Shown piece by piece: positions 12,287-61,113 of a stretch of 64,000 bases of DNA. Each line of letters begins with the position of its first letter. The stretch's first letter is position 1. This DNA is from Octopus sinensis (Eukaryota), in the NCBI RefSeq assembly GCF_006345805.1, contig NC_042997.1, positions 28,830,001 to 28,894,000 on the forward strand, read 5' to 3'. The notes under the pieces were generated by a model. The model saw nothing but the letters and a program-made list of their open reading frames with translations. It searched no databases and was not told where the DNA came from. The translations under genes were made by a program, and so were the position numbers.

Positions 12287-13509
12287 TGGAAACACCTAGC
12301 ATCATGCCATCATAAGTTTGAATTAAAATTTTGAAATAAAACTGTCAAAAGCTTGTCTATTTTATGTTTTTATTTATTTATTATTAGTGTTGCTTAATAT
12401 GTTTTGCTAAAATTACCGTTTCGTTTCAGATATCACCAGGAAAATGTAATTAAAAATTATTAAAATGACAGATCTATCACCCTTTCACAGAGGTAAAATT
12501 GTTGGTGCTCGTATGACAGGCACTAGTGTAATGAAAACAGCTAAAATATTTGTCGTATCAAGAAATACTGTCTCATCGAAACAAAACTCCGGAATAAAAC
12601 CAAAAATTCCAGATAGGGACCATAAGTCTCTTATGCGAATTGTTAGAAAGGATCACAAAAGCCAGCTTCCTAAATTACTGCAGAGCTTAATGACCACCTC
12701 GAGAACCCAGTTTCCACAAAATCTGTTTGCTGGGACAGCACAAAGACGGATTTCACGGGTCGGCTGCAATCAGAAAACCTATACTTTCAAAAACAAACGT
12801 TGCAAAGCCTTTAGAGTAGAGTATAAACCTACAGATTTACTCTCGAGAGCAGTGGAAGAATGTTATTTTCTCGGAAGAGTCATCCGTTACCTTACTTCCC
12901 ACTACCGGCCGAGTATACGTGTGAGAAGAGCCAAGAGAAGCATATGATCCAGTTTGCCTTTTTCCGACTGTTAAACAAGGAGAAGGATCTATGATGATCG
13001 GGGAGTGTGCTATATCTTGGGAATCTGCCGGACCAATGTTTTCTCTTCATGGTAGAATTAATAGTCAAGACTTTTTAAGAATATTATCTGACCAAATTCA
13101 TTCTATGATTGCGGAACCGTTTCCGAGGAGAAATGCAATCTTTTAGAATGATAATTCCCCAACTCACACAGATAAAGTTGTTACTGAATGGCACTAGAAA
13201 CATTCTAGTGAAGTTGAACATCTTATCTGGTCACCACATTCCCCAGATTTCAATATTATTGAACATTTATGCTGCATTTAAAAATCTATAAAACATGTAA
13301 GGAGTCGATATCATCCACCACCATCACCACAATAACTGGATACCGTTTTAGCTGAAGAATGGACAAACATTCTTTGAAAACAATTTAAACTTTGCCCGAG
13401 TCCATACGTCGTAGAATTCAAGCTGCAATTACTGCCAAATGCTGCCCTACCACATATTAAAATATATTTGTTTGAAATTTTAAGGTGCTTCTATTATTTT
13501 GTCAAACCC

Positions 13510-13630: not shown

Positions 13631-13725
13631 ACCGTGTTAAAGAGAGTTATTCTCTTTTAGTGCCTTATTACACTTAACTCACTCACCGGTTCAATTTGTA
13701 TTCATTTACTTATTCTTTCTAAATT
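13631..13725 (-). mobile_element. Fragment of the same family as the 26194-26567 element
   Basis: gagagttattctcttttagtgccttatta...actcaccggt matches 26267-26313. Confidence 0.75.
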
Positions 13726-23856: not shown

Positions 23857-24216
23857 TGGTTATTTACCCAATGTGTTCGAAGATGATTAAACGGTCCCAC
23901 GTTCGATTTCATTATTTGTTATATCCGAAATTTTGTATACGGAAAGTTGTAACAAAAGTTAGTGGCGACTATAATTTCTATGGAACATCTGTAGAAATAA
24001 ACTTTATCAAGTGATATATATATATATATATATATATAATAATAAATATTAGGGAATAAATCCAAATTTACAGGGAAAAAATCAGATTTAGGATTAAATC
24101 CAATTTTATAGTAAAATATTATAAAATATTATTAGAGACAAAACCACTATTTTGCAAAACAAACAAGGAAAGACTTAATCAATACATAAAATTTTAATAA
24201 ATAGTCAAAAAAACCG

Positions 24217-24259
24217 CCACTACAATCGTTTCTTGTCTTGATCGACAATCTTCAGGTGG
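24217..24259 (-). ncRNA. Minimal type-I hammerhead ribozyme (canonical core)
   Basis: Exact mirror of 24324-24366. Confidence 0.8.
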
Positions 24260-24323
24260 ACTTCCAATAATTCAGTGTCAAATTATGAAGTACTTCATAA
24301 TTTGACACTGAATTATTGGAAGT

Positions 24324-24366
24324 CCACCTGAAGATTGTCGATCAAGACAAGAAACGATTGTAGTGG
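24324..24366 (+). ncRNA. Minimal type-I hammerhead ribozyme (canonical core)
   Basis: CCAC-CUGAAGA-UUGUC(GAUCAA)GACAA-GAAA-C(GAUU)G-UA^GUGG; predicted cleavage after 24362. Confidence 0.8.
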
Positions 24367-24453
24367 CGGTTTTTTTGACTATTTATTAAAATTTTATGTA
24401 TTGATTAAGTCTTTCCTTGTTTGTTTTGCAACATAGTGGTTTTGTCTCTAATA

Positions 24454-24492
<39 letters not shown>

Positions 24493-24894
24493 TATATATT
24501 TATATTTATATATATACACACATACATACATGTGTGTCTTTATATACGACATATGTACATACACACACACATATATACACATATACATGAACGTATATAT
24601 ATATATTGTTAATAGCAAATTTACTCCCAAGAATATTTTGTTATAGTTCTACATATATCCTTGAGGAAATTTAATACCACCTCCATAGGAAATAATAAAT
24701 AAATTAAACGCCTGAAAATCTGTTGCAACGCGATCAAACGGCGATAATATGAATGTTCTATAACAGGAGAATGCAGTGAATGTAATAAAACTTCCTAAAC
24801 GATCTCTTAATGACCATCTTGTGTTAGTAGGTAATCTAAATTTAAATTTCCGATAAAATTTCATATTAATTTGTTTTGTAAATACTAGCTTTAT

Positions 24895-25082
24895 CATTAT
24901 TTCAACTCTAGGCACAAGGTCTTGAAAATGTTTGACGAGACGGGCTAGTCGATTATATCGACTCCGAAAGGATGAAAGGCAAAGGCATATTCGTTGGAAT
25001 TTGAACTCAGAACCTAGCGGCAGAATAAATATTGCTAAGCGTCTCGTCCGGCGTGCTAAAGATTCTGCCAGCTCGCCGCCTT
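24895..25082 (-). mobile_element. SINE family C
   Basis: gtcgattatatcgactccgaaaggatgaaaggcaaag...ctgccagctcgccgcc. Confidence 0.85.
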
Positions 25083-25169
25083 AACACTAGCTTAACATTT
25101 ATTTTACTAAACTTTCTATTATTTTAAAATTAATTAAATCAAAGATTATGTCTTTCAATAGAAATATCA

Positions 25170-25565
25170 TTTTGTACACTAGGCGCAAGGGGTGCAATTT
25201 TTAGGGAGGTTGCCAGTGGATTAGATTGACCCCAATATGAAACTGGTTCTAAATTTATCGACCCTAACAGGATGAAAGGAAAAATCGACCTCGGTGGAAT
25301 TTGAACTCAAAAGGTAAAGACAGACGAGATACCTATTTCTTTACTACATACAAGTGGCTAAACACAGAGGGGACAAACAAGGACAGACAAACGGATTAAG
25401 TCGATTATATCTACTCCAGTGCGTAACTGGTACTTATTTAATCGACCCCAAAAGGATGAAAGGCAAAGTCGACCTTGGCGGAATTTGAACTCAGAACATA
25501 ACGGCAGACGAGATACCGCTAAGCATTTCGCCCGGCGTGCTAACATTTCTCCCAGCTCGCCGCCT
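25170..25565 (-). mobile_element. SINE family C, dimeric form
   Basis: Two ggatgaaagg...gaatttgaactca units joined by gatacctatttctttactac; head at 25545-25565. Confidence 0.85.
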
Positions 25566-26193
25566 TCTCTCAACTAACAAGCAGCGCCATAATTGTTAAA
25601 ATGGTGAGTGCTCTGTTACCTCGAGCGCCGAACTAATTTCTCTTGTCGGAGAATAGACTCCACCAATCATAAACGACATGCTCCATTCATATAAGTGCAA
25701 GTCAGTTGCGGCTTAGAAATTTGTATTAAATCTCTTGTTGAACTGATTGCACAATATAATATAACCTTTCTCACACAACCATAAATTTTGTTCTAATATA
25801 AACTAAAAGTAATTTAAATGTTTTATGGTTCTTTGCATTATCTAAGTCAATAGAAGTTACTCAGAATACTCTTGCCAATAACAATACATCTGCATCTAGA
25901 ACGGGCGGAAGGAATTAATAATTTAATGAACCATAATATACCATTTTCGTTTCCTTTCGGCTGTCGAGTTTTGGTGGATCATATGTGCTGTTATTCGTTT
26001 AGTGCATGTGAAGACATAAGGCCTTAAATCTCTTCATATTAACATGACAATTTCACTTTCCTGCAAAATAAGGCAGGTCAGACTACATACATTTTCAAGA
26101 AGAACGTTGTATTTTTATCGTAGCAAAACATAGAATTTATATCATTCTTCATTTCCTGAACCAATCAAACTTTAGAGAAATAGCAGAAAATAT

Positions 26194-26567
26194 TTTGTTT
26201 TTGGATTTTGTTTGCAAGATTCTTTATATGAGTTCGTGTGTTGAAGCATATTCTGTTGTGTCTGGGGAGAGTCATTCTCTTTTAGTGCCTTATTATTTAA
26301 CACACTCACCGGTAAAATTTCTACTTATTTCTTATTTTTATTTTCTAAAATTTTCGTTGCATCTTGCAACGTTTTCAATAGTCTTGACTCTGTTCGTTAT
26401 TTACACAGTGTAAATAACGGACAGAGTCAAGATTATTGAAAAGGTTGTATGTAAGACACAACGAAAATTTTAGAAAATAAAAATAAGAAATAAGTAGAAA
26501 TTTTACCGGTGAGTGTGTTAAATAATAAGGCACTAAAAGAGAATGACTCTCCCCAGACACAACAGAA
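26194..26567 (-). mobile_element. ORF-less fold-back element: 57-nt tail plus palindrome 26251-26567, with 10-bp TSD
   Basis: Arms 26251-26406 and 26408-26567 around centre base 26407; TSD cagaaaatat at 26184-26193 and 26568-26577. Confidence 0.85.
26345..26381 (-). ncRNA. Hammerhead-like motif, U3-A8 core variant (diverged mirror copy at 26433-26473, + strand)
   Basis: CUA-UUGAAAA-C-GUUGCA(AGA)UGCAAC-GAAA-AUU-U^UAG; palindromic stem III AAUU; stem I only 3 bp. Confidence 0.5.
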
Positions 26568-27299: not shown

Positions 27300-30167
27300 C
27301 ACTGGTCAACACGAATTTTGGTGCCATGAAACAAAAGACGTTTTTTCGCTAATTTGATGGTGCTGATTCCGAAAATGACCTTAGTTTTTCGTGGTTAGCT
27401 ACCGTTTTTGCTGTACTGAAATTGCTCATTTTTGGAAAAAAGATCCATTTACGATCTTGGCTGATCACAAAATTTAGTTTAAAAAGGTAATAGAAACCCA
27501 TAAATTTTTAGGTGGGCCGAGGATTTATATCAGCCACTTGAAATAAAGTAGTTTTATAAGTAAAAAAAAGTATTTTTGAATAAAAAATTTTAAAACAGAA
27601 GTACCGAATTTTCCCAATTTATAGCCAAAATTTAAATTAACTAATTAACTTTATCAGTAATACACCTTAGTAAACCTGATAATTGAGATGACATAAAAAA
27701 ATTAAACCCTAAAATCTGTTTGATATTCATAAATTTATCCCATCAATACGGAAGGAAACCAAGCACATTAAGAACATTTGTTTTCACACCTGGAAAAAAT
27801 CTCCAACTAAAGACATCCGAATTAAATGCATCTATTCCATTGTACATGATGACCATCATGAAAATGGTTTCACCATAATATCTGCCCTCCTCGCGGGATT
27901 ACGGAGATACGAATTAGAATCAGCGTAACGACTCTTTCCACCTTTTGTTATTGACAGTTTTACGAGTCTTTCCGTAGGACATTAGGAAAGTTCAAATTAC
28001 TTAAATGTGAACACGCAAAGTGTAATGTAAATGGTCAACCAACGCATATTTTTTTTAATCATACAAATAGATTTCAAATAACATGGCTTCAACGAGAGGA
28101 TGCAAAAATTATCCAAACTTATTTTGCTACATATGCGGCGAGTTCACATCGAAAGCCATCAGGAAAACGATATCTGACTTTCACAAGAAAGCCTATTGTG
28201 CTTACTTTTACGTAGAACTTGGTGATCGGGACAAATCATAGGCTCCTCACATTGTTTCCAAGACATGTTTGGAACACATGTTGCAGTGGACTTCAGGAAC
28301 CCGAAAATTACTGAGATTCGCTATTCCTGTGATCTGCCGTGGGCGAAAGAACCACTCTGACGAATGTTACTTCTGATCAGTCAGGGGTTCGAAAGAAACG
28401 CAGATCTATGGATAATCCCAGTCTTCTTTCCGCTATTCGACCAGTGCCGCGTTCAGATGATTTGCCAATCCCAGTATTTCACGAAGATTTGTTGAAAGTC
28501 ACGAGTCTGATACTGCTGTAAATGAGTGACACAACGAAAACGATCCTGACTATGTTCCCGAAACCTTGCCAGAACCGCTTAACCAAAATTAGCTGAATGA
28601 TTTGGTTCAAGATTTAAATCTAAGCAAACAATCAGCAGTCCTGACCTTCAGGCTCAACGAAAAGACCTGTAGCAAAAGGCACAAACGTAACATTCTATCG
28701 AAATAGGGAAGCCGATTTTGTACCATTCTTTAAAGAGAACACGGATCTTGTTCATTGCAATAATGTTGCGAGTGTAATTCTTCGACTAGGCGTCCACAAA
28801 TACAATCCTGAGTAATGTAAATTGTTCACTGATAGTTCAAAATGTAGTTTGAAATGTGTTTTGCACCATAATACCAACATGCGTGCACCAATACCTATAG
28901 ATCATTCAACAACACTGAAGGAAAAACATGATGCCATCAAACAGGTTATAAAACAGATTGACTACACCAAACATAAATGGGTGTTATGTGTCGATTTCAA
29001 AATGGTAAATTTCCTTCTTCGTCAACAAAGTGGCTACACGAAATTCCGATATTTTTTTGTGTATGTCGAACAGTAGAGCAAAAGAGGAGCATTGGGAAAG
29101 GGGTGATTGGCTACCCCGAGAGTTGAAAATCAAAGAAAAGAACGTTACTAGTGCAGCGATAGTTCCGAAAGAAAAACTTTATCTTCGTACCCTTGCATAT
29201 CAAATTGGGATTAATGAAATCACTCGACAAAGAAAGTAAATGATTTGAGTATATAGATAAATCGTTTCCAGGACTTATCACCGAAAATCTCAAAGCAGGA
29301 ATGCTTGATGGTCCTGATATGAGGAAACACAATAAGGAGGATGAATTTATTAATTCAATGAATGCATTGGAATTTTGCACTTGAACATCATTTGTTGAGG
29401 TGGGAAAAAACTTCTTAGGCAATCGCCGGGCCGAAATCTACCAGGAGTTATTGGAAAATCTGTTGAAAAGTCTACAGGACAAAGGCACTATGAGTATTAA
29501 GGTTCTTTTTTTACATAGCCATGTAGATAAATTTCTGGATAATTGCGTCGATGTGAGTGGTGAGCAAGGAGAACAATTTCATCAGGATATCAAAACAATT
29601 GAAGAGTGCTACCAACAACTATGGGGCAAACGAATGATGGCTGACTACTGCTGGAAAATCAAAAGTGACTTAACATTGAACATGACAGATAATCCAGAAA
29701 GAGAACATTTTTACAATAGTTCTTATGTTCACAAAAGTTTTATTTCTGCTGTTAGTTTCGTTAATGATTTGATGAAAATACTTGTTTGACTTGGTATATT
29801 CAATCGTGTTATTTTTAAACACTTCTTGTTATAGCAAAGACTTATTGCTACTTTTAAAGACGGATTGTTATTGCAAAAATAGCATTTCTCAATAAGTAGA
29901 CCAATATTTGTTGGTTTAAATACAAATTGAGAGGTTTCTACGATATTACTTGGAGAAATCCTGCCATCGATCAATAATCAAATATACAGAAAACAATTGA
30001 TTTTTTTCTTTTTTTTTCAAAAACGAGGCATTTCTCTACAGCTAAAATGGTAGTTAACCAAGAAAAAGTAAGAGCCTTTTTCAGATTCAGCGCCCCCAAA
30101 TTAGCTAAAAAAGGTGATTGGTGTCTCGACACTATTTCAATTTATTTTTTGTTGTTGTTGACCAGTG
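27300..30167 (+). mobile_element. Chapaev3-like (CMC group) DNA transposon, full length, transposase pseudogenised (about 28083-29680)
   Basis: Termini cactggtcaaca / tgttgaccagtg with about 120-bp imperfect TIRs; MASTRGCKNYPNLFCYICGE, LGDRDKS*APH, LHIKLGLMK, KAGMLDGPD, NFLGNRRA, FLHSHVDKF...SGEQGEQFHQDI...MMADYCW; family name from recall. Confidence 0.8.
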
Positions 30168-33074: not shown

Positions 33075-34369
33075 ACAGTGTATGGGGCGTTGTTATGTGT
33101 TCTTGTAGTGTGCGGATCCAGCACATCTTGATTGTAGGACGTAACATGTTCAATACCGTGTATGTCGTCCCTGGGTTTTCAAAACGGCCAAATATCGTCG
33201 GTACATGGATGCATGAGGCGGTTCACAAAAGCCATTGGCACGTGTGCCCACATCATCTGGAAAACTGCCTCCAGTTCCTCATGAGTTGTCGGCGTTGGGA
33301 CCACCTAGTCTAGCTGTATGTGTATTTCATCTAACATGTGTTCAATTGGGTTCAAATCCGGACTGAGAGCCGTCCACGTAATGTTTCTGATATGCTGCCG
33401 CCGGAAACCCATACTAAGCCTCACCGTGTGGAAGGGAGCATTGTCCTGCTGGAACACACAGCTTTTGCGCCGCCCATAGAATGGAACGATGTGAGGTCTT
33501 AGGATCTGCTCAACCTAGATCTGCGCTGATGACTCTGTCTGCACCAATATTTTGGAACATATGAGGCCCAATTTTCGGATTCCGGCCGATAGCAGCCCGA
33601 ACCATGATGCTTTGGACACTCCAGGCGTCTCTATACATTACACATGCATCTCTTACGCCACACCGTCACTCTGCCACCCGAGGGGGTAAAAACGCACAAC
33701 CGTCTCTCCTCAGAGAAGACTATTGATCGCCCTTGTTGATGCTGCCAATGTCGGCGTTATGTAGCCCACGATAATCGTGCCTGACGGTGGCGGGCGATGA
33801 GAACAGACCCGTCACCTCGTACCGGATGATGTCAACGCTAGTTGTTGGCGGCCAGTCGACGTCGCACCGTGTCCTCGCTGATGGGTCGCTGTCCAGTGTC
33901 AATGGTTACGCGAAAGGTCACGCTTGCCGGTATGAAGCGATGACGGAGGTGCTGCAGGTGAATGAATCGGTCCTGCCTAGGCGTGTTCACCCTGAGATGC
34001 CCTCTGCGGCCATGCGGTTTGTGTTGTGTCGTTGTTGCAGGCGATAGATGTGCCGATAGATTGTTCTCCCTGTGCTGCTGACAATTGGGTCATATCAGAT
34101 GCCCTCAAATTACTAATGAAAGGAACGCGGTTCAAGTTGATTTTTACGCATTCCTATTTTAATGACAAGTGTGTGCGACTGCCAATCGCGGCATTCAATA
34201 CAGCTGCGTTTTGGCGTCTCACTTTAGGGAAATTTGAAACGATACCCGCAATGTCGGTCTCAGACTTAAACCAGCATGTCTTGGAATATTTACACTTACA
34301 TTTCCGAAATAAATTTTGAGAAGTAGCCATGTATAACATTTAAAACATCGCGTTTCTTCAACAGTTCAA
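33075..34369 (-). mobile_element. Tc1-like transposon, decayed
   Basis: Minus-strand FQQDNAPFH and WTALSPDLNPIEHML; terminal ta|cattgaactgttgaagaaacgcg. Confidence 0.85.
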
Positions 34370-35070: not shown

Positions 35071-35419
35071 TTATTAAATCTCTGAATGAGATGTAAACAG
35101 TAACCGCTCGACAATGAAAAGTATAATAGCCATCTCAATATGGCTAGCCACAAAGGGTGTTACTGTAGCTTTTAGCCCCAGGAGATCATCGTCTCCAGCT
35201 GGCTTTAGGCACACTATCTGGGCCCTTATGGTATTTGCAAAGGGAGGCCATCCGTTTCTCGTAAGCCTAAGTGATACACACCGGACCCTTTGCAAATACC
35301 ATAAGGGCATAGATAGTGTGCCTAAAGCCAGCTGGAGACGATGATCTCCTGGGGATAAAAGCTACAGTAACATCCACCCTTTGTGGTTAGCCATATTGAG
35401 ATGGCTATTATACTTTACA
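35071..35419 (-). mobile_element. ORF-less fold-back element: 43-nt tail, about 131-bp inverted arms, 41-nt spacer, 12-bp TSD
   Basis: Arms 35114-35244 and 35286-35420; TSD tattttggagta at 35059-35070 and 35420-35431; homologous to HHR-bearing 57090-57345. Confidence 0.85.
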
Positions 35420-36810: not shown

Positions 36811-38164
36811 GGAGACCCAGAAACTCCTAAATGCAAATCAGCATGGCTTTCGCTGTGGCAGGGACTGTCTAACACAGCTCCTACACCACATTGAAGATGT
36901 ACTCAAAGCCTTGGGAACAGGTTCGAACTCTGATGTTATATATCTTGACTTCAGTAAAGCGTTCGACAGGGTAGACCATAATATCCTACTCTCAAAATTG
37001 GCAAATGTTGGAATCCGTGGAAAAGTTCTACACTGGATCAAGTATTTCCTGGCGAATAGAACACAACATGTTGTAGTTGATGGAGTCCACTCAAGCCCAG
37101 CAAAAGTCACCAGCGGTGTCCCCCAGGGGACTGTCTTGGGTCCGCTACTCTTCATAATCTACATAAACGACCTTTCCAGTGTCGTACATTACTGCAAAGT
37201 GAAAATATTTGCTGATGAAACCAAGCTCCAACAAATCGTCAATGAAGAAGCAGACCGAACTCAACTCCAGTCTGATCTATATGCTGTAAGTCAATGGATA
37301 GACAGAAACAAAATGCAACTGAACGAGGGAAGATTTGAGCTGATGCATTTTGGAAGAAACTCCTCACTAAAACACCCATACACTCTTCCTTCAGGGGAAC
37401 CGCTCACAGCCTCTAACAATATCAGAGACCTGGGTGTAATTGTTGTTGACGATCTCAGTTGGAGTGCACACATCAACAAGAAGGTCGATATAGCTCGTAG
37501 GATGAGTTCCTGGATCTTAAGAACTTTCCGGTCCAGAGAACAAGGTGTCATCATACCACTTTTTCCTCCTTTGTACGGCCACACCTTGAATACTGCTGCC
37601 CACTGTGGTCTCCTCACACAAGACAAAACATCTCCAGAATTGAGTCACCTCAGAGGGCACTAACTAAACGCATTGAAGGCATGGCTGCTCTCGATTATTG
37701 GGATCGCCTTAAAGCCTTGAACGTTTACTCCCTCCCGTGTCGCCGTGAGCGGTACATCATTTGTACGATGTGGAAAATATACCGCCAACTTTGCCCAAAC
37801 GACCTAAACATTAGCTTCAAGGTTCATCCAAGACTTGGACCACGGGCTATACGTCCCCTGCCCAATTCAAGATCACAACATACATGTACACTGCAACATA
37901 ATTTCTTTTCCTCAACAGCCCCTGCCCTATTTAACATTGTCCCGAGAGAGATCAAAGAGGAAAAGGATCCCATCAACTTTAAACAGAGTCTGGATAGATT
38001 CCTTCAAAGAATGCCAGATAAGCCACCCATAATTGGATACAACTCACCCAACAAGAACTCACTACTTGAACAAAACTTGACTTAAACAGGATTCGAATAA
38101 TCCTATCAGGTGGTGCTATTAAGTTTGACATGGCCTGGACCAATCTTTGGTCGAAACATATCTA

Positions 38165-42420: not shown

Positions 42421-42534
42421 CTGAAATGACTCTAGACCTTATTTACTTAAAATAGAAGTTGATATTTTTTCGCCTCATGCATTTGTACATCATTATATCA
42501 AACGCGGTTACAGTGAATCACGATTAAAGTAAAT

Positions 42535-43560
42535 AGCAAATGAAATAGCTAAAATTAGCATAGATAGTTAAACCTTCACGCATAATTTTAGCAAACACAA
42601 TACAATAGATGAAAGAATCCCTTTAGTGATTAACTGGCATTTCAAAAGTGGTGCATGAAAGTTACCAGCATGTGGCGAAAAGTATCCTCGTTTCAAACAG
42701 ATATTTCCTCTGCCGCCTATTGTAGCCTTTAGGCGGAATAAGAATATAAGAGAATTATTGACCTCTATTTCTGACTCCAAGAAAACGAAGATTGGAGTAT
42801 CTGCACGCTGTACCTTGAAAAACAACTGGAAGATAGTTAAGCCTTGTTCATTGTGCAACAACAGGAGTCAAAGGAATTCCACCAGGAATCATAACAGAAA
42901 TGTTATGGTTTGTACAGAAGGTGGGACATGTAGAGATTCCCGTTTGATGTACGCGGCAGAATGCACGAAACACAATTTGATTTATGTTGGTTATACAACA
43001 GATCAATTAAACAAAACATTTAATGGGCACAGATCCGACGTCAAGCACAATACAAATAGTTCGACAGAACTTGCCGAACATTCTGTTTCAAACGGCTGTA
43101 ATTGTGAAAACAAGACTTGAAAGTACATATTCTCACAAAAAATTGTGAATCTGCTTCAGTTTCACTTCTCAGAATGCACGAGGAGAAAGTTGTTTGCGGG
43201 TTATTAAGATCACGTCCTGAAGAAATGAATATGACAGGAGAATATCATCAATTTTATACAAAACTGTATGAGTAAACATTCTTCTTTTCCCTTTTTTTGT
43301 TTCTTTCTTCTTTTTGTGTTTTTTCTATGTTTTTCTTGTCGCTTCTTATAAAATTGAAATATAAAGACTGATAATTGATTCCATCAATGTGTGGACGCTG
43401 GTTGCTCTCGTTCAATCATTAAATTTAAATTTCTATATTTTTTAATTTTTATCATTTCTTATTTTGAACTTGACAAAGACAGACTTACTGTCGAAATATC
43501 GTTCAACCAATAAAATATCTATTACAATCGCTCTCTTCGTCTTGATCGTTAACCTTTGTG
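42535..43560 (+). mobile_element. Penelope-like element 3' part: RT thumb/linker, GIY-YIG endonuclease (to about 43275) and 3' pLTR
   Basis: DERIPLVINWH, KQIFPLPPIVAFRRNKNIRELL, PCSLC, LMYAAECTKHNLIYVGYTTDQLNKTFNGHRSDV, ELAEH; hammerhead downstream. Confidence 0.9.
43464..43506 (+). ncRNA. Minimal hammerhead ribozyme, U3-A8 variant, in the Penelope 3' pLTR
   Basis: UUGAAC-UUGACAA-A-GACAG(ACUUA)CUGUC-GAAA-UAU-C^GUUCAA; 6-bp stem I, palindromic stem III AUAU; predicted cleavage after 43500. Confidence 0.75.
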
Positions 43561-43584
43561 AAGAGTTATGTCAATCCTTTTAAA

Positions 43585-43730
43585 ATGCAACAACAAAAAC
43601 AACAGCACCAATAATAATGATACTAATAATAATAATAGCAACAACAATAATAATAATTATCATCGTCATCATCATCATTATTGTTGTTGTTGCTGTTGTT
43701 TTTGCTGCTGGTGATGCTGTTGATGTTGCC
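43585..43730. repeat. Mixed trinucleotide repeat (CAA/TAA/CAT/TGT)
   Basis: Direct reading. Confidence 0.85.
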
Positions 43731-53118: not shown

Positions 53119-53850
53119 TGCGGCTAGCTGGCAGAAACGTTAGCACGCCGGGCGAAATACTTAGCGGTATTTCGTCTGCAGTTACGTTCTGAGTTGAAAT
53201 TCCGCCGAGGTCGACTTAGCCTTTTAATCTTTCGGGGGTCGATAAATTAAATACCAGTTACGCACTGGGGTCGATGTAATCGACTTAATCCGTTTGTCTG
53301 TCCTTGTTTGTCGTCTCCCGGTTTAGCCCCTTGTGGGTAGTAAAGAAATAGGTATTTCGTCTACCGCTACGTTCTGAGTTCAAATTAGACCGAGGTTGAC
53401 TTTGCCTTTCATCCTTTCGGAGTCGATTAAATAAGTACAGGTTACGCACTGGGGTCGATATAATCGACTTAATCCGTTTGTCTGTCTTTGTTTGTCCTCT
53501 CTGTTTATTTAGCCCCCTGTGGGTAGTATAGAAATAGGTATTTCGTCTGCCGCTACGTTCTGAGTTCAAATTTCTCTGAGGTCGACTTTGCCTTTCATCC
53601 TTTCCGGGTCGATTAAATAAGTACCAATTACGCACTGGGGTTGATATAATCGACATAATCCGTTTGTATGTCCTGTTTCGTCCACTCTGTGTTTAGTCCC
53701 TTGTGGGTAGTAAATAAATAGGTATGTCATCTGTCTTTACGTTCTGAATTCAAATTCCGCCGAGGTCAGTTTTCCCTATCATCCTTATGGGATTGATAAA
53801 TTAAGTACCAGTTGCGTACTGGGGTCGCTCTAATCTACTGGCCCACTCCC
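53119..53850 (+). mobile_element. SINE family C, tetrameric array of about 185-bp units
   Basis: ggtatttcgtct-like unit starts at 53166, 53351, 53537, 53721; head only on the first unit. Confidence 0.9.
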
Positions 53851-57089: not shown

Positions 57090-57365
57090 TGATAAATATC
57101 AGAGTGAGTTATCAACAGTAGCAGAAGCACATCGTGATGTAAATATGCCATTTGAATATGGCTAACCCCTAAGGGTGGATGCTACTGTAGTTTTTAGCCC
57201 CAGGAAGACGTCTCCTCCAGCTGGCTATAGACACACTTTCTGTACCCTATCAGTATTTGCAAAGGGAAGCCATTCTTCCCGTCTTCAACTTATGATACAC
57301 ACGGACCCGAGTTTCAAGGTATTGACCTATCATCAGCGTGTGACAATCACAGCTGTCGATAGGAA
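57090..57365 (-). mobile_element. Single-arm relative of the 35071 fold-back element (pLTR-like), retaining the complete hammerhead
   Basis: aatatggctaacccctaagggtggatgctactgtag...tttgcaaaggg...tgatacacacggaccc aligns to 35136-35288. Confidence 0.8.
57298..57342 (-). ncRNA. Minimal type-I hammerhead ribozyme (canonical core, GUC site)
   Basis: CACACG-CUGAUGA-U-AGGU(CAAU)ACCU-U-GAAA-CUCGG-GUC^CGUGUG; 6-bp stem I; self-complementary stem III ACUCGGGU. Confidence 0.85.
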
Positions 57366-60514: not shown

Positions 60515-61113
60515 CGAGGGTGAGTCATAAAGTGATGCCATTTAGTTTAGGATAGCTATAATTACGAACACAGGCGCATGTATCATACATCGAAATGAAG
60601 CTGATCCTCTGAGAGTCACATCCCTACAACTCAACATAGTCGCCGTTTCTCTCAATAGCAATGATCCACCTTCAAATGAGAGAATGTATCCCGGCCCCGT
60701 AAATTCTATAGACTGTTCTTTGAGCCACGTCTTCAGTACAGTTTTCACTTCCTCGTCACTGGACTATCATCGTCACTGGACTATCATCGTCACTGGACTA
60801 TCATCGTCACTGGACTATTATCTCTTCGGCCACAGGAAACAGAGTTTCAGAGGCAAACGTTATTCCATTGACGAGGAAGTGAAAACTGTAGTGAAGAAGT
60901 GGCTCAAAGAATAGTCAGCAGAATTATCCGGGGCAGGGTTACATGCTCTCATTCGAAGGTGGAACATTGCTATTGAGAGAAACGGTGACTATGTTGAAAA
61001 GCAGGGGTGTAATCCATAGAGGGCCAGTTTCATTTTGATGTATGATACATGTTCCTGTGTTGGTAATTATACCTGTCCTAAACAAAATGGCATTACCTTT
61101 TGACTCAACCTCG
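60515..61113. mobile_element. mariner-derived fold-back MITE made of two inverted 3' ends
   Basis: ta|cgagggtgagtca...tgactcaacctcg|ta; about 240-bp inverted arms carrying the transposase C-terminus (DYYLFG, RGKRYSIDEEVKTVVKKWL, RWNIAIERNGDYVEK); four 17-bp repeats at 60753-60820. Confidence 0.9.

Follow-up and report, generated by a model that had tools for sequence, protein, structure and literature searches.

A spacerless hammerhead-bearing palindrome in Octopus sinensis, probably a head-to-head pair of truncated Penelope-like element 3' ends

The genome of Octopus sinensis carries, at the locus described here, two hammerhead ribozyme (HHR) motifs on opposite strands, one in each arm of a palindrome that has no spacer. 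Is such a locus a regulatory device, in which a hairpin controls RNA self-cleavage, or is it a by-product of retroelement insertion? The locus was analysed within the whole 64,000-nt stretch of DNA that contains it, called the window hereafter. The best reading is that of a young inverted pair of 3' ends of Penelope-like elements (PLEs), formed during integration. In particular, the palindrome is probably an ORF-less head-to-head pair of 5'-truncated PLE 3' ends, the ribozymes of which are predicted to be silent. This PLE origin is inferred from the anatomy of the locus.

The palindrome measures 344 bp and is made up of two arms of 172 nt each, 99% complementary and separated by a spacer of 0 nt (Table 1). 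It is the longest inverted repeat found when the whole window is scanned with spacers of 0-120. Base-by-base comparison of the arms gives a single mismatch, T at 24151 against C at 24432, located outside the ribozyme, and arm complementarity stops at 24119/24464. Scan and comparison both bear out a previous interpretation made from the letters only (the sequence-only reading), which had described a spacerless palindrome of this length with one arm mismatch. The element had also been taken to be very young or homogenised, and the low arm divergence (1/172, 95% CI 0.015-3.2%) fits either case; we infer a recent age, the alternative being gene conversion between the arms. At the outer tip of each arm, the four letters TATA may come from the target site rather than from the element. 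The arms carry no coding remnant, since stops break all three frames of the ribozyme strand, for the arm as well as for the arm plus its one-sided extension. As single-stranded DNA, the hairpin has a computed energy of -193.6 kcal/mol and its centre is 70% AT, so that extrusion of a cruciform by the palindrome is plausible.

Table 1. Positions of the palindrome, its hammerhead motifs, its flanks and the PLE remnant, counted from the first letter of the window.
Feature	Position	Strand	Remarks
Left (TA)n run	24014..24037	.	Probably part of the target microsatellite
One-sided extension, ~82 nt	24038..24119	-	Between left arm and (TA)n; candidate PLE "tail"
Left arm	24120..24291	-	Likely 5'-truncated PLE 3' end (pseudo-LTR, pLTR), judged from anatomy; reads leftward
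Only arm mismatch	24151	.	Partner 24432; base comparison
HHR motif, other strand	24217..24259	-	Same motif; descriptor match; predicted cut after 24221
Spacerless centre, AGTACT	24289..24294	.	Presumed junction of two copies
Right arm	24292..24463	+	Same sequence, reads rightward; last 4 nt enter (TA)n
Type I HHR motif	24324..24366	+	Descriptor match; helix I 24324-27/24363-66; core 24328-34; helix II 24335-39/24346-50; self-pairing helix III segment 24354-61; predicted cut after 24362 (GUA)
Right (TA)n run	24460..24499	.	Adjoins right arm; probably part of the target microsatellite
Decayed Neptune/Nematis-type PLE, 3' portion	42467-43587	+	RT thumb to GIY-YIG, T-rich 3' UTR
Intact minimal hammerhead of this PLE	43464-43506	+	U3-A8 core variant

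The hammerhead motifs were identified with a descriptor made up of helix I of at least 4 bp, CUGANGA, helix II, GAAA, helix III and UH. Only two matches with the CUGANGA core occur in the 64-kb window, one per arm and both pointing outward, the predicted cut sites being 141 nt apart. Block shuffling (100 shuffles) sets the chance rate of a descriptor match at 0.01 per 64 kb and, because no match appears in 20,000 shuffles of the arm, the motif is not a chance occurrence. Its catalytic core is complete (C3-U4-G5-A6-N7-G8-A9, G12-A13-A14, A15.1-U16.1, H17), and helix II has 5 bp. The GUA triplet at the predicted cut is found in natural hammerheads (PMC1636495). Hence, the earlier description of canonical divergent hammerheads holds for the divergent orientation and for the intact core. 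The word canonical does not hold: helix I has 4 bp instead of the 6 bp with loop 1-loop 2 contacts of canonical type I motifs, a 4-nt loop caps the 2 bp of helix III, pair 10.1-11.1 is U-A vs. G-C in the consensus, and Rfam returns no hammerhead match, either at gathering or at E<=10. The centre also matches Rfam miRNA precursors, but with scores well under gathering and on account of the hairpin, and a miRNA reading was therefore rejected. An integrated viroid-like RNA was also set aside, on the reasoning that the genomes of viroid-like RNAs form an imperfect rod whose plus and minus ribozymes differ, the palindrome having two identical arms.

The motif is best compared with those of PLEs, for which a consensus CUGANGAH...GAAAN-palindrome-NUH is given in Fig. 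S3 of PMC4209133. Compared by eye with this figure, the motif fits the consensus apart from G10.1-C11.1, and the arm thus has a type I HHR of the PLE kind near its 3' end. Rows for Hydra Poseidon, Drosophila, Aedes, rotifer and shrimp resemble the motif in their CUGANGAH core, 3-5 bp helix I, self-pairing helix III and NUH; the Hydra row further has the same U10.1-A11.1 pair and GUA triplet, and a Lottia row shares a 3-bp helix I and an 8-nt core with the motif. In the same figure, again by eye, U-A at 10.1-11.1 occurs in at least two of the 56 rows and an extra A before GAAA in one. The octopus motif, a putative ribozyme, differs from these rows in that its extra A before GAAA can pair with a usually bulged U and in that the G10.1-C11.1 of the consensus is lost.

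The motif is of the dimer-dependent type described for PLEs, in which single minimal HHRs are inactive and dimers weakly active (PMC4209133). In the 43-nt monomer, helices I, II and III have probabilities of 0.89, 0.71 and 0.04, respectively, and the monomer folds no better than shuffled sequences (47/200). The helix III segment, 8 nt long, is self-complementary, and the minimum-energy structure of two 43-mers is a dimeric hammerhead (cofold -21.4 vs. 2 x -6.5, or -13.0, kcal/mol). By direct count, 36 of the 256 possible loops would also give a self-pairing loop III, so that this loop lends supporting, not strong, evidence to the dimer-type reading. The direct count replaces an earlier loop control (121/256), discarded because its cofold minimum chose non-hammerhead folds. 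The motif is thus predicted by folding to need a second sense copy in order to cut, and such a copy is not supplied in cis at this locus.

Several features of the arms and flanks point to inverted PLE 3' ends. The strand that bears the ribozyme is T-rich (42-54%, with 42% in the right arm and 50% in the extension, which keeps the bias of the arm), vs. 54% T in the sense 3' UTR of a PLE present in the window. The head-to-head call assumes that the HHR strand is the RNA strand, an assumption that this T bias supports; with it, the locus shows inverted copies and a palindromic junction. Inverted pLTRs of 181-218 bp with palindromes at their junction and a tail on one side have been described, head-to-head being the commonest pLTR layout, and self-priming and antisense templates have been proposed to explain them (PMC3846280). 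An adjacent inverted 5'-truncated copy and a bias toward microsatellites are likewise reported for PLEs (PMC8557442). Pen2/Pen2a/Pen3a of Adineta vaga (PMC3846280), Penelope of Drosophila virilis (PMC2377424) and the scheme in Fig. 2 of PMC8557442 all represent head-to-head inverted pLTRs of EN+ PLEs. The octopus palindrome resembles them in the size of its inverted 3' ends (172 bp), its palindromic junction, its one-sided extension and its AT-rich, microsatellite target. It differs from them in that neither an ORF nor a direct pLTR separates its arms, the whole insert being the palindrome. Pairs of minimal HHRs on opposite strands, ~100-700 bp apart and probably derived from truncated PLEs, are also on record (PMC4209133). 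Those of Schistosoma mansoni and of a Cotesia bracovirus PLE, attributed to truncated PLEs in the text and in the legend to Fig. S4A of that paper, likewise consist of two close HHRs; at 141 nt, the octopus pair stands at the short end of the range, and its motifs are identical and lie within a near-perfect palindrome.

The flanks are consistent with insertion in a microsatellite, as (TA)n is found on both sides of the palindrome. The right end abuts such a run, the background being 2.1% of the window within 5 nt of one, and the left end is at most 85 nt from another (background 7.9% of the window). No target-site duplication can be distinguished from the TA repeats. At 82 nt, the extension is longer than the tail published for PLEs, which is optional, occurs on one end only and measures 30-40 bp (~31 nt in the inverted pLTR systems). 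Within the extension lies a degenerate repeat of 20-21 nt; nothing else in the window matches this extension significantly, and it could be host DNA instead of a PLE tail. As for the position of the ends, the predicted cut is 97-101 nt from the arm end, which itself lies 124-128 nt past the start of HHR stem II. In vitro, a PLE protein cuts AT-rich DNA on both strands and extends them, reverse transcription starting within the RNA, 111-118 nt past the first position of HHR stem II, with a protein-assisted HHR dispensable for insertion (PMC11167929). The distance in the octopus arm is close to, and somewhat longer than, this one, and the AC-rich stem-loop is missing: unlike that of Poseidon_Ac, the arm end is U-rich and folds barely (-2.7 kcal/mol).

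The tests run place the palindrome neither among autonomous PLEs nor among tandem retrozymes, and its motif outside the canonical Rfam hammerheads. The palindrome has no ORF with the RT and GIY-YIG domains of an autonomous EN+ PLE. A tblastn search with seven PLE-like proteins gave matches confined to 42.4-43.1 kb of the window, and no ORF-bearing parent of the arm was found within the window. As expected for an animal repeat, the exact 28-nt motif has no occurrence in prokaryotic genomes and the arm has no match in phages; an alignment of PLE proteins against prokaryotic genomes gave 42 pattern matches, none of which was confirmed. None of seven DNA motifs was found in the supplement of PMC8557442, which says little, as long runs are interrupted there. 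No description of this family or locus turned up in the openly accessible papers searched; subscription journals, Repbase or bioRxiv supplements may contain one.

Could the arm instead be the monomer of a non-LTR retrozyme, or of another non-autonomous HHR repeat, with the palindrome arising after insertion from fold-back replication or a repair error? Like the arm, non-LTR retrozymes are short, non-coding, AT-rich units with a type I HHR (PMC7229834; bioRxiv 10.64898/2026.07.22.740005). Their units span 51-972 bp, a range that includes the arm length, and solo monomers are common (bioRxiv 10.64898/2026.07.22.740005); furthermore, the window has other long inverted repeats. However, retrozymes form head-to-tail tandems that enable dimeric cleavage, whereas the octopus copies are head-to-head, and no direct repeat of the arm, nor any second copy of it beyond the palindrome, exists in the 64-kb window. 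Moreover, the duplication halts at the (TA)n boundary and takes in no unique host flank. We consider this origin unlikely, and it largely converges on that from PLEs, as the abstract of the same preprint derives animal retrozymes from PLE pLTRs (bioRxiv 10.64898/2026.07.22.740005).

A second alternative concerns the polarity of the arms and comes from the decayed PLE at 43 kb. This element has a CxxC linker of the Neptune/Nematis type, as defined in PMC8557442, and a GIY-YIG remnant with a Pfam E of 0.004, below the cut-off; its relatives carry RT and GIY-YIG domains. Its minimal hammerhead has a 6-bp helix I, a 5-bp helix II and no loop 3, is shortly followed by AATAAA, and the element ends ~90-110 nt past its own HHR cut, in a CAA/AAT microsatellite. 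HHR-bearing PLEs with the same end anatomy as the palindrome therefore exist in this genome. In sequence, the palindrome is tied to a PLE only by a match of 34 nt (82%) between the arm HHR and the minus strand of this element (43556-43523), opposite to its ORF and 22 nt past the cut site of its sense minimal HHR. If real, the match may reverse the polarity assignment: the arm HHR would be antisense in the 3' end of a Neptune-like PLE with ribozymes on both strands, and the palindrome would be tail-to-tail relative to the ORF. Shuffled queries seldom equalled the score of the match (1/100 and 0/600 in window-wide trials), and antisense templates are part of the model proposed in PMC3846280. On the other hand, the match was noticed post hoc, ends at the cleavage triplet, and lacks the CUGA core and helix I. 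Its extension is not significant (251, 2000, 390 and 450 of 2,000 shuffles in four scoring schemes), the best score of the whole arm is equalled by 23 of 100 shuffles, and the HHR strand is, by its composition, the better candidate for the RNA strand. Reversed polarity is thus quite unlikely. We give just as little credence to its fuller form, a PLE lineage with HHRs on both strands of its 3' end, in which the palindrome would be a self-primed copy keeping the antisense ribozyme intact and the 34-nt match its decayed counterpart.

Spacerless perfect inversions are a known type of chimera. The palindrome might therefore be a fold-back artefact of the library or of the assembly, the genome having a single arm; PLE inverted structures are indeed reported to trouble short-read assemblies (PMC8557442). 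However, the arms differ at one base, the mirroring ends at the (TA)n boundary, unrelated flanks of over 20 kb follow on either side, and there is no N anywhere in the window. An artefact is accordingly very unlikely.

The hairpin had also suggested a built-in off switch to the sequence-only reading. Its premises are supported. A transcript of either strand does carry a sense HHR and its antisense, as each strand holds the antisense followed by the sense sequence, and the hairpin does compete with ribozyme folding (-272.6 kcal/mol for the hairpin of the full transcript vs. -192.2 for the ribozyme fold). The switch itself is not supported by the folding computations. In the full transcript, imposing the hammerhead fold carries a penalty of 80.4 kcal/mol; this penalty is 72-80 kcal/mol at all four transcript end points tested, and only RNAs that begin at ~24260 or further downstream bring it down to 2-6 kcal/mol. 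Since the hairpin is favoured by some 80 kcal/mol and the antisense arm precedes the sense arm in transcription, read-through RNA is predicted to have no "on" state, its ribozymes being permanently off, silent rather than switched. In addition, cleavage would need the second sense copy discussed above, and the layout is that of a published PLE by-product.

The same idea may be put as a selected regulatory device, in which the hairpin turns self-cleavage off and on. The off state is computed, and RNAs starting at the centre could, by the cofold model, dimerise in trans: for the RNA 24292-24380, the dimeric hammerhead is the cofold minimum (-34.4 kcal/mol). For the full arm, however, the dimeric hammerhead is 5.5 kcal/mol above the cofold minimum, and all HHR helix probabilities are 0.03 or lower. 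TATAAA is not found at the centre, nor is there any other indication of a promoter there, and no evidence of a host gene or of conservation was found. Among 249 filtered ORFs of at least 55 aa, a set in which short exons would be missed, RVT_1 is the only Pfam domain above the cut-off (GIY-YIG and DDE_3 are below), and no host gene appears. The very low arm divergence, finally, fits a recent insertion. Such a device is highly improbable.

Least credible of all is the capture of a hammerhead by a fold-back MITE, derived from a DNA transposon and duplicating TA at its target: both ends are TATA and another long palindrome lies 1.8 kb away (26251-26567), but the terminal TATA is inseparable from (TA)n, the window holds a single full copy, the extension is one-sided, the termini match no transposon end among those testable, and the HHR is at a PLE-like distance from the end.

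The window as a whole is repeat-rich, animal-type DNA, with repeats resembling those of octopus genomes. The palindrome at 26251-26567 is MITE-like, with 118-nt outer arms (97%), 40-nt inner arms and a 1-nt spacer; it has a partial copy at 13642-13717 and no hammerhead descriptor match. Another inverted repeat (35158-35372; 87-nt arms, 41-nt spacer) has a related copy at 57180-57308, and at 60711-60916 a 53-nt inverted repeat surrounds a 17-nt tandem (4.1 copies), overlapped by a frame that we take to resemble the C-terminus of a mariner transposase and that has no Pfam match. A frameshifted LINE reverse transcriptase remnant occupies 36812-38085 (+; RVT_1 E ~2e-22). Likely remnants of DNA transposons are found at 12450-12947 (+; weak HTH match), 33308-33514 (-; weak DDE_3 match, E 0.0014) and 29385-29789 (+; an unassigned, presumably transposase-like frame). 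Finally, a SINE-like repeat unit of 184 bp, which we assume to belong to an octopus-like family, forms a tandem of 3.6 copies at 53166-53839 and has 80%-identical copies at 24952-25566, just right of the hammerhead palindrome.

How might a head-to-head pair of PLE 3' ends have formed? A PLE RT-GIY-YIG protein acting in trans would nick both strands of a (TA)n array, and each nick would prime reverse transcription ~100 nt past the site of ribozyme cleavage, with one of the two priming sites further out, which would leave the one-sided extension. The two cDNAs would then grow inward and join via a short self-complementary end, or a single cDNA would fold back; either route would account for the zero spacer. 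In both arms, cDNA polarity runs inward from the flanks, as this model requires. Without the parent element, joining of two cDNAs and fold-back would probably be indistinguishable. Cleavage by the ribozyme would be confined to dimers, in tandem transcripts of the parent, and read-through RNA of the inverted layout would give ~170 bp of dsRNA, more likely to undergo RNAi or A-to-I editing than to cut itself.

Head-to-head PLE palindromes, one-sided tails, microsatellite bias and opposite-strand HHR pairs are all published (PMC3846280, PMC8557442, PMC4209133). If the palindrome is made of two PLE 3' ends, it adds a further young and truncated insertion to those of a layout already published, and as such it matters little. 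Only ribozymes on both strands would surprise a specialist and, if true, would give direct access to the model in which PLE inverted repeats arise from antisense templates. If transcribed, the locus would be a ready source of dsRNA. Its modest value is that of a clean minimal case, an ORF-less and spacerless pair with one mismatch, which, given the sequence of the parent RNA and an empty site, could separate twin priming from fold-back self-priming.
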